In this document: positions 1-4,860 of the stretch, piece after piece
How positions within the stretch are numbered: the stretch's first letter is position 1
Layout of the letters: every line of letters starts with the position of its first letter
Virus record (IMG/VR): IMGVR_UViG_3300001919_000214
Strand: one strand, 5' to 3'
Origin: a virus
Lineage: Duplodnaviria > Heunggongvirae > Uroviricota > Caudoviricetes
Length of the DNA: 5,172 nucleotides
Translations under genes and position numbers: made by a program
The notes under the pieces: generated by a model
Seen by the model: the letters and a program-made list of their open reading frames with translations, nothing else
Database searches by the model: none
Told to the model about the DNA's origin: nothing

Positions 1-933
1 GAATCCTGCCGGGATCTGGCTGTAGTCCACGTTGTCGTAACTGGCTTTGAAGTACGGGTCTTCACGTTTTTCTGTGTGCGTGCTGACGGACGGCGATAAG
101 CGCAGGGAAAGCTCATCCCATTTTTCCCGCAACTTCGACGGGCTGAGCACGTTACGGCACCAGAACGGATCACGGCTGACGCGGCTGTACATCTCGCAGA
201 TTTGTTTGTGAGTACGACCATCCTGCACACACATCAGGCGAATTTCGTTTGCCCAGGCTGTCCAGTTCGGTTCTTTGGGACGAACCACCTTGCCGTCACA
301 TTCGGCGGCTTGCTCGTACAGGGCGATGATTTTTTTCCAGAGCCACTGTGCGCAGGTCAAATCATCCTGCGTTCCCCACTGGCGCTTTTTAGGGCTGAAT
401 ACAACCGCATCAGGATGGCGAGTTAAAAAATACTGTTCAGCCGTCTGCGTGTCCGGTTGCGAAGCGTCCGGACGAGAAGGTTTTTTATCTGACGGATCAT
501 GTTTTGATTTTACTGACGGATCCCCGCCAGATTCTGACGGGTGAAAACCCGCTTTTTTGCCAGATTTCGACGCATCAAATTTTGACGGGTCAGATTTTGA
601 TGCGTCAGATTTTGACGGGTCAGAATCTGACAGTTGAGAAAATGCCGCTGCCTGAAGCTTCGCAACGTTAAGCTGATAAACATTCGACGCATTGCGGTTA
701 CCCTGGCGACGCGCCTTACGCGTTAACCAGCCTTCTGCTTCCAGCCGTGCGATAGCCGTTCTGACGGTACTCATCCCCGCGCCAATCTGACGGGCAATGG
801 TTTCAATTGATGGCCAGCACACACCTTCGTCATTACTGAAATCAGCCAGGCGGGCCATAATTGCCACGCTGGATAATTTCATGCCTGACGCAGCGCAACC
901 ATCCCATACATAGCCGGTTAATTTAGTGCTCAT
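1..933 (-). CDS. Phage replication initiation protein, lambda O-like; 5' part of the gene (311 codons), the 3' end lies beyond the window start
   Basis: Minus-strand frame open from ATG at 933-931 to position 1, checked codon by codon at the start and through 541-633. SD-like TAGAGG lies 6 nt upstream of the ATG. N-terminus (MSTKLTGYVWDGCAASGMKLSSVAIMARLADFSNDEGVCWPSIETIARQIGAGMSTVRTAIARLEAEGWL) looks like a winged-HTH initiator domain, followed by a Ser/Asp/Lys/Pro-rich repeat linker (SDSDPSKSDASKSDPSKFDASKSGKK) and a distinct C-terminal domain. Not in the ORF track because there is no in-window stop. Confidence 0.75.
   Translation of the reverse strand, partial: MSTKLTGYVWDGCAASGMKLSSVAIMARLADFSNDEGVCWPSIETIARQIGAGMSTVRTAIARLEAEGWLTRKARRQGNRNASNVYQLNVAKLQAAAFSQLSDSDPSKSDASKSDPSKFDASKSGKKAGFHPSESGGDPSVKSKHDPSDKKPSRPDASQPDTQTAEQYFLTRHPDAVVFSPKKRQWGTQDDLTCAQWLWKKIIALYEQAAECDGKVVRPKEPNWTAWANEIRLMCVQDGRTHKQICEMYSRVSRDPFWCRNVLSPSKLREKWDELSLRLSPSVSTHTEKREDPYFKASYDNVDYSQIPAGF
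485..642. repeat. Iteron-like tandem repeat array (about 15-bp period, TGACGGGTCAGATTT-like units) inside the initiator gene; putative origin of replication
   Basis: Consecutive 15-bp units at 553-567, 568-582, 583-597, 598-612, 613-627 and 628-642, plus TGACGG motifs at 490-495, 514-519 and 535-540. The same repeats encode the pentapeptide linker of the initiator, as lambda ori does within O. Confidence 0.55.
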
Positions 934-942
934 GACCGACCT

Positions 943-1281
943 CTATTTCCCTGAATTTACGACGAAACTGTTCGAGCGGGCTGAAGCACTCATGCTCATA
1001 GCCTTCACGGAGGTAGATAACCCGTTGTGTTTCCGGCTCCCAACGAATGACTCTGACGGGCACTCCGTAGTGATCTTTGAACCAGCGGTTAACTTGTCGC
1101 AAAGGACTGTCTCCTTCTGCCGGTTGAAATCACCCACAGCCCACTCTGCAAAGCTGTGGGTTACAATTTCCCTGTCACCTGGTACATTCACTGCATAGCA
1201 ATACTCCACCTTCGCTTTTCCACCCGGTACAGGAAGTGCAATCAGTTGCGAACGACGGTAGTGTGTTGTTAAACTGTTCAT
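943..1281 (-). CDS. Hypothetical small protein (112 aa), third gene of the cro operon; possibly YmfM-like (e14 prophage) by position and length only
   Basis: ORF with ATG at 1281 overlapping the upstream stop as ATGA (1278-1281); GGAG lies 10 nt upstream. Stop at 943-945 sits 9 nt before the initiator ATG. No recognisable motif in the translation. Confidence 0.55.
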
Positions 1282-1940
1282 GCGTTAGTTTCTCCACAAC
1301 CAGAAGCAATCGACGCCACGACGCCCGGAGCTGCACACTCGCGGGCGTTACTCTTTTCCGGCGCACAAAAAACACGAAATAACAGTGTTAAATGCTCCTG
1401 CCACTTCGCCATTACCTGGTAGCTGTTCTCTTCGATTTGCTCACGCTCAGCTTGGTCAATAACTCCATCAGCAGTTGCCTTGCGTAAGTACTGAGAATGC
1501 TTGCCAATCCATTCTATTGACTCCATCAGCCGCTGATTAATGTCACCATTGTCAATGTCATCAATGACCACCAGCGGCACAAACACCCCATTACTACGAC
1601 GGGCTATTGCATCTGTTACATGCCTGGTACCACTGGCATCCTGTAAAACCATGGCCCACTCAAGTGGAAAAATTTGATCCCCACCGCTACGCAGTCTGTT
1701 ATGCAATTGATCTTTTGCTGGGGTGATATCATCAGATTTATACAAACCAAGAATTTCTGCTGCTTCCTCATAGCCATGAGGTAAATCAGCAATCGTTCTT
1801 CGTATTGCTGCCACCAGCCATGCTGGTTGTTTATCAACTTTCCATTCAGGTTCTTTACCCACGGTTAATTCCTCATTTCTGTGGTTACGTTTACGCAGCT
1901 GAACCGCTAACTTTTGAATAGCACTCAGGTAATCCATCAT
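1278..1940 (-). CDS. Hypothetical regulatory protein in the CII/YdaT/YmfL position downstream of cro (221 aa from ATG 1940)
   Basis: Long minus-strand ORF with stop at 1278-1280. Start is ambiguous: ATG at 1973 (83-bp overlap with cro), ATG-ATG at 1940/1937 (47-bp overlap, no SD), or GTG at 1862 with GAGGAA 8 nt upstream (194 aa, no overlap). Functional call rests on synteny alone. Confidence 0.55.
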
Positions 1941-2154
1941 TTGGATTGGGGTAAATATCAGGACGCAGTTCATGAGGGGTCACGGACCAGTTTCCCAACT
2001 CACAAAGTTGTAAAACCCGTTCTGACGGGACTTGATTGTTAATTACCCAATTAGCGACGGATTGAGTGGACTTAAAACCAAAGCGACGGGCTACTTCAGA
2101 TAAAGATTTTCCCGCAGCCTTTACTGCTTTCTCTGTGTAGTTTTGAGATGACAT
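1891..2154 (-). CDS. cro: Cro-like HTH regulator (YdaS/Cro family), 87 aa
   Basis: ATG at 2154 with AGGAG 6 nt upstream. Translation contains SLSEVARRFGFKSTQSVANWVINNQVPSERVLQLCELGNWSVTPHELRPDIYP, the pattern I associate with YdaS-type Cro proteins. Divergent from the CI-like gene. Confidence 0.8.
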   Translation of the reverse strand: MSSQNYTEKAVKAAGKSLSEVARRFGFKSTQSVANWVINNQVPSERVLQLCELGNWSVTPHELRPDIYPNPNDGLPECYSKVSGSAA

Positions 2155-2306
2155 ACCTTTCTCCTCTGAAATTCAGAGGGATGATGCTACTTAAAATAGC
2201 AANNNNNNNNNNNNNNNNNNNNNNNNNNNNNNNNNNNNNNNNNNNNNNNNTGCAACTACTTAAAATAGAAATGACTAGTGTATGTGATGTGAGTAATCTT
2301 CTACCT
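2155..2306. promoter_or_regulatory. Divergent cI/cro switch region with candidate operators; 48 nt masked by N
   Basis: 17-bp perfect palindrome CCTCTGAA-A-TTCAGAGG at 2163-2179, adjacent to the cro SD. 13-bp direct repeat CTACTTAAAATAG at 2187-2199 and 2256-2268 flanks the N-run. Promoter hexamers cannot be read because of masking. Confidence 0.5.
2203..2250. other. Run of 48 N (masked or unsequenced) in the cI/cro intergenic region
   Basis: Directly visible. Confidence 1.
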
Positions 2307-3011
2307 ATGGTAGAAGAACAGAAGTATCCAGATTTCGCCAAGAGACTAAACGAGCTAATGACAAACAAGGGAATTTCTGTCACCCAACTCAAAAGTCTTG
2401 TGGGCGTTACATATGAAATGGCGCGGCGATACACAATCGGCGCTGCGAAGCCTCGTGCCTCTGTCATGAATAAACTTGCATTGGCTCTGGGGGTATCAGC
2501 TTCATATTTAGAATATGGTGTTGGCGAGAGAGAAGGATGTAAGGAAATGGCAAGCATCCCCAATCCAACGAAACCCGATGTATACAGGATAGAAGTTTTG
2601 GATCTTAGCGTTAGCGCAGGACCTGGGACCTATATGCTTTCAGACTATGTTGATGTGCTCTACGCCATTGAGTTCACAACAGAACATGCCCGTTCTCTTT
2701 TCGGCAACCGTTCTCAGAATGATATTAAGGTTATGACTGTAAATGGCGATAGTATGTCCCCTACACTCGTTTCCGGAGACCGACTGTTTGTCGACATTTC
2801 TGTTCGTCACTTCCAGACTGATGGAGTTTACTCTTTCGTTTACGGTAAGACTTTTCATGTCAAACGTCTTCAAATGCAAGGTGACAAGCTAGCCGTTCTT
2901 TCGGATAACCCCGCCTATGAGAAATGGTACATCGATGAAAAATCGCAGGATCAGCTTTATGTAATGGGCAAGGCGTTGATTCACGAATCTATAAAATACA
3001 ACCGATTGTAA
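2307..3011 (+). CDS. cI: CI-type prophage repressor: N-terminal XRE-family HTH plus C-terminal LexA/S24 autopeptidase domain (234 aa)
   Basis: HTH region FAKRLNELMTNKGISVTQLKSLVGVTYEMARRY; probable Ala-Gly cleavage site in VSAGPG; catalytic Ser in GDSMSPTL and Lys in FHVKRLQ, arranged as in LexA, lambda CI and P22 C2. Stop TAA at 3009-3011. In-frame ATG at 2271 is an alternative start; neither has a strong SD. Confidence 0.9.
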   Translation: MVEEQKYPDFAKRLNELMTNKGISVTQLKSLVGVTYEMARRYTIGAAKPRASVMNKLALALGVSASYLEYGVGEREGCKEMASIPNPTKPDVYRIEVLDLSVSAGPGTYMLSDYVDVLYAIEFTTEHARSLFGNRSQNDIKVMTVNGDSMSPTLVSGDRLFVDISVRHFQTDGVYSFVYGKTFHVKRLQMQGDKLAVLSDNPAYEKWYIDEKSQDQLYVMGKALIHESIKYNRL

Positions 3012-3055: not shown

Positions 3056-3454
3056 ATGAAATCTGAACTATTTCATAGCGAAGCAAATTCAGAAATTATC
3101 ACTGCAGATGAGTTTATTGATTTCATAAACTCTTTCAAAAAGCCTTTAATTTGCCAAATTTGCGGAAATCAATCATGGAGTGTAGTCGGTACTCTAGAAC
3201 TTGAAGTTGAAGACAATCAGCCAAAACATCACGTAATNNNNNNNNNNNNNNNNNNNNNNNNNNNNNNNNNNNNNNNNNNNNNNNNNNNNNNNNNNNNNNN
3301 NNNNNNNNNNNNNNNNNNNNTAAATTATCCTGGTGGTATGCCGCTGTTTCGAATCACCTGTGATCACTGTGCACATGTACTTCTTTTTTCTTATAAAAAA
3401 GCTAGATCATTGATCCAAAAAAGAAAAAATGAAAAAGAAGAGGATGGGAAATGA
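3056..3454 (+). CDS. Hypothetical small protein with two CxxC pairs (zinc-ribbon-like), 132 aa if continuous across the N-run
   Basis: ATG at 3056 with AGGA 8 nt upstream. CQICGN before the gap and CDHCAH after it lie in the same frame, supporting one protein. Basic C-terminal tail. Continuity across the 83 masked bases cannot be verified. AT-rich. Confidence 0.5.
   Translation: MKSELFHSEANSEIITADEFIDFINSFKKPLICQICGNQSWSVVGTLELEVEDNQPKHHVXXXXXXXXXXXXXXXXXXXXXXXXXXXXXNYPGGMPLFRITCDHCAHVLLFSYKKARSLIQKRKNEKEEDGK
3238..3320. other. Run of 83 N inside the putative zinc-ribbon gene
   Basis: Directly visible. Confidence 1.
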
Positions 3455-4083
3455 CGCGACCTTATCTCAGAGCAGTACCAAACTGTGGATCTGGTATTGA
3501 TAAGTGTGACCTTTACCCCAATGTTAAGAACAGGCTGCGCGTCGGTATAGAAGAAATGTATACTGATTTTATCGAATCCGCAGATGAAACTTACAAAACT
3601 GATGGGGGAAATAAAATGTCATCAGTTAGTCGAGAAGAAATTCAAGCACTTTTAGCTGCCAATAAAGCAGAAATGGAGTCCATTGCATCCTCTATTAGAG
3701 TTGAAATGGCTTTATCTCGCGAGAACACAAACGTTCAGCTAGCATCTCTAAATTCAGCCATCAATTCTATCTCTTCGAAAATCGAAGGCAAAATGGACAG
3801 TGTTGACGGGGATGTGAAGGCCATCAATGGTAGATTCGAAGGTATACAAGGCCAAATTACTGGAATAAATACAGCCATTAGTGGTATTCAATCTGGAATT
3901 TCTACCAGACTTGCTATTTTTGGAGTTATCATTGCGGTCATAGTTGCATTACCTAGCATAATTTCTGCTTTTAAAGATACTTCGCCAGTAGTTCAACCAG
4001 TTACACAACAATCAAGTGTTAAACATCTCAACCAAGAACCAATTACTCCACAAGTATTACCTCCGCAGGGAAAAGCAAACTAA
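3451..4083 (+). CDS. Hypothetical coiled-coil protein with a single C-terminal transmembrane helix (210 aa; alternative internal start at 3616 gives 155 aa)
   Basis: ATG at 3451 overlaps the upstream stop as ATGA, with GAGGA 6 nt upstream. Internal ATG at 3616 has GGGGGAA 5 nt upstream. Heptad-like Ile/Ser/Gly-rich segment, hydrophobic stretch LAIFGVIIAVIVALPSIISAF, then a Pro/Gln-rich tail. Architecture is reminiscent of XhlA-like or exclusion-type membrane proteins; this is low-confidence pattern matching. Confidence 0.65.
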   Translation: MTRPYLRAVPNCGSGIDKCDLYPNVKNRLRVGIEEMYTDFIESADETYKTDGGNKMSSVSREEIQALLAANKAEMESIASSIRVEMALSRENTNVQLASLNSAINSISSKIEGKMDSVDGDVKAINGRFEGIQGQITGINTAISGIQSGISTRLAIFGVIIAVIVALPSIISAFKDTSPVVQPVTQQSSVKHLNQEPITPQVLPPQGKAN

Positions 4084-4106
4084 ACCGGCTTTATGCCGGT
4101 TTTTTT
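4083..4106 (+). terminator. Rho-independent terminator closing the cI-linked operon
   Basis: Stem AACCGGC (4083-4089) pairs with GCCGGTT (4095-4101) around loop TTTAT; T-run continues to 4106, immediately after the stop at 4081-4083. Confidence 0.7.
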
Positions 4107-4198: not shown

Positions 4199-4251
4199 NN
4201 NNNNNNNNNNNNNNNNNNNNNNNNNNNNNNNNNNNNNNNNNNNNNNNNNNN
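4199..4251. other. Run of 53 N in the intergenic region after the terminator
   Basis: Directly visible. Confidence 1.
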
Positions 4252-4421
4252 ATTATCTACTTTTAGTTGTTGATTTTTGCTACTTTTGGTAGCAGAATTA
4301 TTTTAACGACAACGAACAGGCAGGACGCCCACGAAGTAGCCGCCTGGGGCATATGAAGTCCAGGATGATTCGTTGAGTCATGTTGTGCCACCAGGCACTC
4401 ATGTTAAAGCAGGTGTATGAA

Positions 4422-4697
4422 ATGAAAGTCCAGATTTTAAACAATAACTGTGAAGTCGTTTGGTCATACGACATAGCCGCCCCTGTAGATCAGAGCGGCG
4501 ATAGCTGGACCAATGGGAAACATCAGATTATGGCTGGAGTTGTGTTCTCTTTACGCCGTGCTTTGGAACAGGCTGAAGTATTTCCATCAGACCCTGAATG
4601 GAAATGGCCTTTTTCTATTTGTCCAAATTCGGAGAGCACATTTCAGAAAATTGGTCAGAAAGTCGCACTCGAAGAGCATCAGCCAACTGTTTCCTGA
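4422..4697 (+). CDS. Hypothetical protein (91 aa from ATG 4422; the ORF extends in frame to ATG 4380)
   Basis: AGGTG lies 6 nt upstream of ATG 4422. Codon pattern looks coding. No recognisable motif; not Arg-rich, so not an N-type antiterminator. Its last 83 bp overlap the convergent minus-strand ORF. Confidence 0.4.
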   Translation: MKVQILNNNCEVVWSYDIAAPVDQSGDSWTNGKHQIMAGVVFSLRRALEQAEVFPSDPEWKWPFSICPNSESTFQKIGQKVALEEHQPTVS

Positions 4698-4860
4698 TTT
4701 TTTCAGGTAACTCGTCGGCATCGCAGAAACAACAACGCTCGATCATGTTGAAAGCCGATTCGTAGAACTGTTTCCGCTGAGTGTCGCTGAGACAGGAAAA
4801 GAGCGACGTTACGATGATTTTATTAATTGCATTATCAAGTTCTTTTTCATCAAAAGTCAT
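4615..4860 (-). CDS. Hypothetical small acidic, Cys-containing protein (81 aa)
   Basis: ATG at 4860 with AGGA 7 nt upstream. Contains CCFC and a further Cys; no HTH seen. Overlaps the plus-strand ORF at its 3' end. Confidence 0.5.
   Translation of the reverse strand: MTFDEKELDNAINKIIVTSLFSCLSDTQRKQFYESAFNMIERCCFCDADELPEKIRKQLADALRVRLSDQFSEMCSPNLDK

Follow-up and report, generated by a model that had tools for sequence, protein, structure and literature searches.

Predicted operators, promoters and a cro-leader fold-back in the immunity region of a lambda-like Escherichia coli prophage

We analysed a stretch of 5172 nt (hereafter the window, meaning the whole of the DNA under study) from the IMG/VR virus record IMGVR_UViG_3300001919_000214, assigned to the Caudoviricetes. 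Pfam, PHROG and the annotation of relatives identify two divergent genes, cI for a repressor with a helix-turn-helix (HTH) and an S24 domain and cro for a small HTH protein, with CII-like and replication genes downstream of cro. In relatives, the Prokaryotic Genome Annotation Pipeline (PGAP) labels the cro product 'transcriptional regulator' or 'YdaS family'. We consider it probable that the window represents the immunity region of an Escherichia coli prophage of the lambda-like (CPS-53/e14) type, with an HK022-type CI repressor, and we give the same standing to the account of the switch below, taken as a whole. The interval between cro and cI holds a set of short sites that we predict to be CI operators, and a palindrome at the cro Shine-Dalgarno (SD) sequence that is better explained as a fold-back of cro-sense RNA. 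Coordinates are collected in Table 1.

Predicted operator sites and the distance between them

An initial annotation of the window had reported two copies of the 13-mer CTACTTAAAATAG and taken them for operator elements of the cI/cro switch. Both copies are present as claimed, and an exact 13-mer repeated within 100 nt arose in only 0.3% of dinucleotide shuffles. Their reading as operators gains from comparison, since the copies belong to a five-member family, CTAC-N5-(G/A)TAG, that is confined to the right and left operator regions (OR and OL) and keeps its positions in 12 lineages. When CTACNNNNNRTAG was searched on both strands with at most one mismatch, 12 strand-hits were obtained against 3.85 expected; none of 200 shuffles reached 12, and all hits clustered at OR and OL. 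We refer to the three OR sites as O_a, O_b and O_c. The last of these, at 2301-2313, is missing from the initial annotation and extends to a perfect 8-3-8 palindrome, CTTCTACC-TAT-GGTAGAAG.

The lineage comparison covered 12 diverged representative lineages whose Cro proteins are 63-100% identical. Across them, a relaxed form of the motif occurred almost only as the OR triplet (spacing 45 + 23) and the OL doublet (spacing 23), with 0-2 matches per 6 kb elsewhere. The O_a half-sites CTAC and (G/A)TAG are kept while the central 5 bp are free (TTAAA, TTCTA, TATTG, TTTAA or CTAAA), and conserved half-sites around a variable centre are the signature of a dimer-binding site, here a predicted one. 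As the centre of O_a is free to vary, it is incidental that the two copies in the window match perfectly. O_b, together with the AAATGAC that follows it, is invariant across all lineages.

The half-site also tracks the CI recognition helix. Every CI that accompanies the CTAC motif keeps the helix GV(T/S)YEMARRYTxGxAKPR, so that CTAC goes with YEMARRYT, TGAAC with HK022, ATAAC with HK639 and TTAAC with a Citrobacter relative; the full sites in these other systems are TGAAC-N5-GTTCA, ATAAC-N4-GTTAT and TTAAC-N5-GTTAA, respectively. Collectively, we predict the three sites at OR and two at OL to be the CI operators of a lambdoid operator region that is ordinary in kind but new in immunity type.

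A run of 48 N (2203-2250) separates the two 13-mers in the window, and the switch promoters had been supposed to lie hidden in it. Relatives do not support this. An 821-nt query covered only 775-776 nt in 205 complete E. coli genomes, in which the flanks of the N run lie 2-3 nt apart; in strain PT62, for example, the DNA across the run reads AAAATAGCAA-AA-TGCAACTAC. The two 13-mers are separated by 10 nt in 43 of 43 IMG/VR relatives. A pattern scan found a 2-nt gap between the flanks in 22 viral contigs and no contig with 20-50 nt between them in IMG/VR or the JGI metagenomes. The cro-to-cI interval of relatives is 106 bp from ATG to ATG. Because relatives carry 2-3 nt rather than 48 between the flanks, the real spacing of the repeats is almost certainly 23 bp and not 69, and the predicted PR (the cro promoter) and a candidate PRM (the cI promoter) lie in visible sequence.

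The same discrepancy recurs at the other N runs. Compared with homologous DNA in relatives, the three runs measure 48 versus 2 nt (2203-2250), 83 versus 47 nt (3238-3320) and 53 versus 6 nt (4199-4251). The excess of 46, 36 and 47 nt is similar in all three, which suggests a systematic offset and gap sizes that are not to scale; open reading frame (ORF) lengths and spacings across the runs are therefore unreliable. The ORF at 3056-3454 encodes 132 aa with its N run and 120 aa in relatives. Were the run at OR to scale, the source strain would carry 46 extra bp, and 48 - 2 = 46 = 2 × 23 would amount to two more 23-bp periods and four tandem OR sites; the run within the gene at 3056-3454 likewise preserves the frame (36 extra nt). 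Such a version of the switch was found in none of the 205 E. coli genomes, the 43 IMG/VR loci or the IMG/VR and JGI contigs, and an excess alike in all three runs is unlike three separate insertions, so we regard this alternative as very improbable.

Table 1. Coordinates of predicted switch elements (listed first) and of other features of the window
Feature	Position	Strand	Description
Predicted operator O_a (OR1-like)	2187-2199		Within the PR -35/-10 spacer
Predicted operator O_b (OR2-like)	2256-2268		Flanked by the PR -35 and the candidate PRM -35
Predicted operator O_c (OR3-like)	2298-2316		Core 2301-2313, CTACCTATGGTAG; holds cI ATG 2307
Predicted OL sites	4257-4269 and 4280-4292		23 bp apart, just beyond the cI-operon terminator
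PR -35, TTGCAT	2255-2250	-	TTG kept in all lineages; same element TTGATT/TTGACT in PL
PR -10, CATCAT	2186-2181	-	CATTAT or TATTAT in relatives
Predicted PR start	G2174	-	7th nt after -10, pyrimidine before it; inferred from the PR/PL module
PL/OL module	4257-4298	+	-35 TTGATT 4270-4275, 17 bp, -10 CAGAAT 4293-4298, predicted start A4305
Candidate PRM -35, ATGACT	2271-2276	+	ATGAC (2271-2275) invariant; doubles as in-frame upstream ATG
Candidate PRM -10, TAATCT	2294-2299	+	TAATCT or TAACCT in all lineages; 7 nt before ATG 2307
cro SD, AGGAG	2165-2161	-	6 nt before ATG 2154; first three bases in the hairpin 3' arm
Inverted repeat/hairpin	2163-2179	-	In cro-sense RNA, 7-bp stem and 3-nt loop, about -10 kcal/mol, SD paired
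cro-like gene	1891-2154	-	87 aa, YdaS-family HTH; Pfam YdaS_toxin 4.6e-11, PHROG 35 transcriptional repressor 2e-20
cI-like repressor gene	2307-3011	+	234 aa, HTH_3 and Peptidase_S24 (Pfam/PHROG)
O-like replication initiator gene	1-933	-	
Small PHROG-1170 gene		-	
CII-like/YmfL gene	1278-1973	-	Mechanical ORF
Two cargo genes between cI and OL	slot 3056-4083	+	
Bidirectional intrinsic terminator	4082-4102	both	Closes the cI operon; scores on both strands

Predicted promoters and the likely start of cI

Alignment of the 12 lineages showed that PR and its counterpart at OL, PL, share one module that consists of the 13-mer, TTG(A/C)nT, 4 nt, the 13-mer and (C/T)AnnAT. A pyrimidine-rich stretch usually comes after the final hexamer, and in nearly all lineages a purine lies 7±1 nt past the hexamer. 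This hexamer, the -10 of PR and PL, has a fixed place directly after the operator and 17 nt from the conserved TTG of the -35, and O_a fills the 17-bp spacer of PR. The sixth base of the PR -35 (2250) is masked in the window; it is T in relatives and one of the two nucleotides that are truly missing. The candidate PRM hexamers are separated by a 17-nt spacer of conserved length and free sequence. Transcription from them is expected to start at about 2306-2307, which would give a leaderless cI mRNA beginning at the ATG within O_c. The five sites overlap or abut the predicted -35 and -10 elements of PR, PRM and PL.

The consensus itself argues less favourably for these promoters. Their hexamers match it weakly (7-8 of 12 positions), below the threshold of the promoter scan, and the sole match above threshold is a rightward TTAAAA-18-TAAAAT built from the two repeats, with which O_a and O_b would repress, not activate, cI transcription. 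We rejected this match as PRM, since the variable centre of O_a supplies its -35 and transcription from it is predicted to start (~2273) past ATG 2271. Its -10 (AAAAT) is invariant and could possibly serve a second cI promoter. Alternative -10 elements for PR, examined by eye (TATTTT in O_a, TAGCAT and hexamers between O_b and O_a), either had no -35 partner at 16-18 bp or were unconserved.

ATG 2307 is the favoured start of cI because of homology to HK022, a conserved MVE(E/D) N-terminus, the promoter geometry and two PGAP annotations. PGAP places the start at the equivalent of 2307 in these two relatives, and its start calls differ between genomes. An alternative start at ATG 2271 had been put forward and is unlikely to be used from PRM. 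One aspect of that proposal holds, in that the 12 codons of the 2271-2306 frame contain no stop in 15 of 15 variants, compared with 8 and 30 stops in the other two frames; conservation is absent from the six central codons. Longer transcripts, such as CII-dependent ones, could possibly give a longer CI isoform from ATG 2271.

A predicted hairpin at the cro Shine-Dalgarno sequence

The palindrome at 2163-2179 is, as first described, a perfect 17-bp one (CCTCTGAA-A-TTCAGAGG, with 8-bp arms around one central base). It had been placed just upstream of the cro SD, but in fact overlaps it. Its 5' arm (2179-2172) coincides with the discriminator and start region of PR. The window's only two inverted repeats with 8-bp arms at most 3 nt apart (2163-2179 and 2298-2316, the latter being O_c) are both in the switch region. 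A second copy of the palindrome with at most three mismatches was not found in the window.

Comparison of leaders pointed to conserved pairing rather than a conserved sequence. Among close relatives, which have 8 distinct leaders, 92.9% of the stem cells are paired, and the changes comprise one GC-to-AU compensatory pair, three single G·U wobble changes and one break. Non-homologous hairpins occupy the same spot in 10-11 of the 12 lineages. Lineages whose Cro is 63-74% identical have different hairpins, for example CCUUGG/CCAAGG, CCUUCUG/CAGGAGG and CCCUUUUGUGG/CUAUAGGAGGG, with loops of 3-12 nt, energies of -4 to -12 kcal/mol and z-scores mostly between -2.5 and -4.5. Of 16 related leaders, 13 have the cro SD paired in their minimum-energy fold, and the SD is located in the 3' arm of each stem.

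These folds favour the RNA strand that encodes cro. Folding is far stronger for cro-sense RNA than for its antisense in 8 lineages, with a clear advantage of the antisense in one lineage only. Several stems depend on G·U pairs, which are valid only in cro-sense RNA; one locus (L057) has four, with -2.0 kcal/mol for the antisense versus -11.6 kcal/mol. As PL has the same promoter module as PR, it served as an internal control, and the 29 nt after the -10 averaged -8.0 kcal/mol at PR compared with -1.9 kcal/mol at PL (Wilcoxon p = 0.0015). Variable arm spacing and strand asymmetry also argue against a protein-bound dyad, and the palindrome is better explained, from these comparisons, as a cro-sense RNA fold-back than as an operator.

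Similar stems were seen further afield. Three IMG/VR loci with a YdaS-type Cro and unrelated operators (L073, L079 and L082) have SD-pairing stems just after a -10-like hexamer and ~40 nt upstream of the cro-like ATG, such as CUCCACAU...AUGUGAGG and CCAUC...GAUGG. Prophages with a YdaS-type Cro may have the fold-back as a common feature. Searches of Rfam 15 at the gathering score gave no match in the window or in the PT62 locus. A plus-strand mini-ORF downstream of the palindrome (ATGATG...) was considered and dismissed, its SD-to-ATG spacing being only 0-3 nt.

From the observed features, their conservation, the covariation and the parallel between PR and PL, we infer a scheme of protein binding, start sites, activation and read-through RNA. 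CI dimers on O_a and O_b would shut PR, with cooperativity probable from the two-helical-turn spacing, and CI at O_b, centred about -45 and abutting the PRM -35, would be placed to activate the weak leaderless PRM. At high concentration, CI at O_c (+1) would repress PRM and so provide negative autoregulation. The two OL sites, being 23 bp apart, would control PL as PR is controlled, and the YdaS-type Cro presumably competes for the CI sites.

The place of the hairpin relative to PR adds a further element to this scheme. In all lineages the 5' arm starts 1-3 nt past the -10 hexamer, and G2174 is the sixth base of the 8-base arm in the window. Because the arm adjoins the -10, the predicted start of PR lies inside or beyond it, and PR mRNA would lack the full 5' arm. 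Such an mRNA would begin GAAUUUCAGAGGAGAAAGGUAUG and be unstructured (predicted at -0.6 kcal/mol) and translatable, and only RNA entering from upstream would fold back and hide the SD. We hypothesize, tentatively and at somewhat less than an even chance, that the fold-back is a translational insulator, such that cro is translatable only from RNA that starts at PR and stray RNA is silent in the lysogen. The initial annotation had proposed that the palindrome gates cro expression, through an RNA hairpin in the cro leader or through a bound repressor. Comparative evidence sustains a hairpin at the SD, with the amendment that the PR transcript itself, predicted to start inside the 5' arm, probably cannot form it; repressor binding fits poorly with the single copy, the variable loops and the G·U stems.

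The main rival to the insulator is the original proposal itself, in which the hairpin forms in normal PR-initiated cro mRNA, from a start at or upstream of 2179, and acts by constant SD occlusion or by stabilising the 5' end, so that Cro is tuned in each infection. The same structural evidence applies to it, and a 5'-terminal stem-loop could equally account for stems that, in all lineages, begin 1-3 nt after the hexamer. It is set back by the -10, which is fixed by its 17-bp distance to the conserved TTG and by the identical PL module, with no conserved -10 further upstream, where the centre of O_a varies freely. The pyrimidine-then-purine step at the sixth and seventh nucleotides is conserved as well, and we know of no sigma-70 promoter that starts 1-3 nt after its -10 hexamer. 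We consider this rival unlikely. The palindrome could instead be functionless, a pyrimidine-rich discriminator that chances to complement a purine-rich SD, as might be supposed from the two lineages that manage without a hairpin and from the shuffling statistics given below. However, the pairing exceeds the SD bases and has been recreated from other sequences in about 10 lineages, no such fold is seen at PL with its shared promoter module, and whole-leader shuffles rarely reach the observed energies, which makes chance complementarity improbable. It is quite improbable, too, that a dimeric protein, such as a host factor, Cro/YdaS or the CII-like YmfL, uses the palindrome as its DNA operator. 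In favour of that reading, an operator palindrome (OR1) is found at exactly this position, between the PR -10 and the cro SD, in both HK022 and e14, and half-sites that co-evolve could likewise account for the GC-to-AT change seen in both arms. Yet there is no second copy at OL or elsewhere, the palindrome is unlike the CTAC sites, the arms are spaced 3-12 nt apart among lineages, and several stems that form only via G·U pairs are poor DNA palindromes.

Several observations count against the insulator or against any function of the hairpin. Inverted repeats that have 8-bp arms no more than 3 nt apart occur in 25% of shuffled windows (mean 0.33), and the palindrome is not significant in the single sequence (dinucleotide z = -1.75). 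Covariation in the alignable group is small, with 8 sequences and one compensatory pair. The SD hairpin is missing from three leaders (L006, L071 and L068) that represent two of the 12 lineages; in these, PR is shifted by 3 nt and has a better -10 (TAGTAT). The PR start at G2174 is predicted, and were the start upstream, the hairpin would be in every cro mRNA. Promoter-like sites on the upstream cro-sense strand occur only at chance level, and the bidirectional terminator already guards the cI operon.

Neighbouring genes, related switches and implications

Outside the switch, the CII-like/YmfL gene as a mechanical ORF overlaps cro by 83 nt; its PGAP start in relatives is the equivalent of 1862, leaving a 28-nt gap after cro. 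Within the O-like gene, 4-5 tandem 15-bp iterons (consensus TCAGATTTTGACGGG, 525-635) are the expected lambdoid replication origin. The slot between cI and OL, which in lambda holds rexAB, is occupied here by a PHROG-4293 protein with CxxC pairs and a 210-aa coiled-coil/transmembrane protein (PHROG 5820). Its content differs among relatives (L005, L006 and L007), with a ParA-family protein or a ClpX-type zinc-finger protein elsewhere. The cargo may be lysogen-expressed exclusion or defence genes; PADLOC gave no significant match. The terminator after the slot would also halt leftward (cro-sense) transcription from a minus-strand gene at 4615-4860.

The switch DNA was present at 95-100% identity in 206 of 5426 complete E. 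coli genomes (~4%), where its prophages have yfdN, yfdP, yfdQ and ymfL-type genes as neighbours. A megablast search of the switch region against the phage collection gave no DNA-level match. When genome contigs were scanned with CI, just three loci were recovered, with only the C-terminal domain in common and with different operators.

The nearest phage CIs over the full length are those of HK639 (59% identical) and HK022 (41.8%; GenBank X16093), both of which use other operators. The prophage resembles these phages in its homologous CI, its divergent cI and cro, its three OR and two OL sites, and its short dyads, in which two half-sites of 4-5 bp flank a centre of 4-5 bp, with adjacent sites 23-24 bp apart. 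In HK022, moreover, an annotated oR site holds the cI ATG in the register of O_c (TGAACTTATGGTTCA there, TCTACCTATGGTAGA here), and PRM has a matching geometry of TATAGT, 7 nt and ATG. It differs from both in its half-site, CTAC as opposed to TGAAC (HK022) and ATAAC (HK639), and in its recognition helix. In the interval from the PR -10 to the cro SD, where HK022 carries an operator, the prophage has what we predict to be a non-operator fold-back; it has a site upstream of the PR -35 instead, and its Cro is of the YdaS family. By its predicted operators, the prophage represents an immunity type of its own, so far uncharacterised, among operator regions of the HK022/lambda kind.

Parallels with lambda include back-to-back PR and PRM, three CI sites with a pair two helical turns apart over PR, one site beside the PRM -35 and one over PRM for negative autoregulation, and, past the cI operon with its cargo genes, a pair or triplet of OL sites. 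The cI mRNA of lambda is leaderless, as is probable here. Unlike in lambda, the sites are 13-15 bp rather than 17 bp and of unrelated sequence, Cro belongs to a different fold family, and the OR3 equivalent is at +1 and the ATG instead of over the PRM -35/-10. We know of no SD-pairing inverted repeat in the lambda cro leader.

The PaaR2/YdaS/YdaT module of CP-933P in E. coli O157:H7 also has a YdaS-family Cro analogue. Its repressor mRNA is leaderless by 5' RACE, and the footprints of repressor and YdaS overlap in a 97-bp intergenic region (PMC8630535). As described there, PaaR2 differs in having no S24 domain and its operators are 18-bp repeats of the GTTTAGTAA-type consensus; a ydaS-leader fold-back is not reported in the text consulted (PMC8630535). 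The e14 element of K-12 (cohE/croE) was rejected as a characterised relative, as it has a different immunity with GTAC...GTAC sites.

The 'fold-back inhibition' of IS10 against external promoters, described by Davis, Simons and Kleckner in 1985, reportedly works in the same way as a mechanism found in T4. In the T4 genes e, soc, 49 and I-TevI, a promoter is located in the DNA that encodes the 5' strand of a stem sequestering the ribosome-binding site, and early read-through RNA is silent (PMC3014915). The cro leader would be alike in that a stem-loop pairs the SD and the gene's own promoter is in the 5'-strand DNA, so that its own transcript is predicted to be unable to fold. It differs from T4 and IS10 in that the promoter here is predicted to be a sigma-70 early promoter under repressor control in a temperate phage, and the protected gene would be the lytic-choice regulator cro. 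We searched the literature for stem-loops in the cro leader of lambdoid phages and met with no direct precedent; as far as these searches show, the class of mechanism is known and its use for a cro gene is apparently undescribed.

Collectively, this analysis provides a predicted CTAC-N5-GTAG operator code, a promoter layout and a likely cI start for an immunity type that about 4% of complete E. coli genomes carry and that no sequenced phage in the collection shares. These have uses in prophage annotation, the prediction of superinfection immunity and the choice of parts for synthetic switches. The N runs of this window are a warning against reading such runs as hidden regulatory DNA. If the insulator is real, it would add a translational layer to the lysis-lysogeny switch, protecting lysogeny at translation as well as at transcription, and would represent the re-use of a trick known from T4 late genes and IS10.

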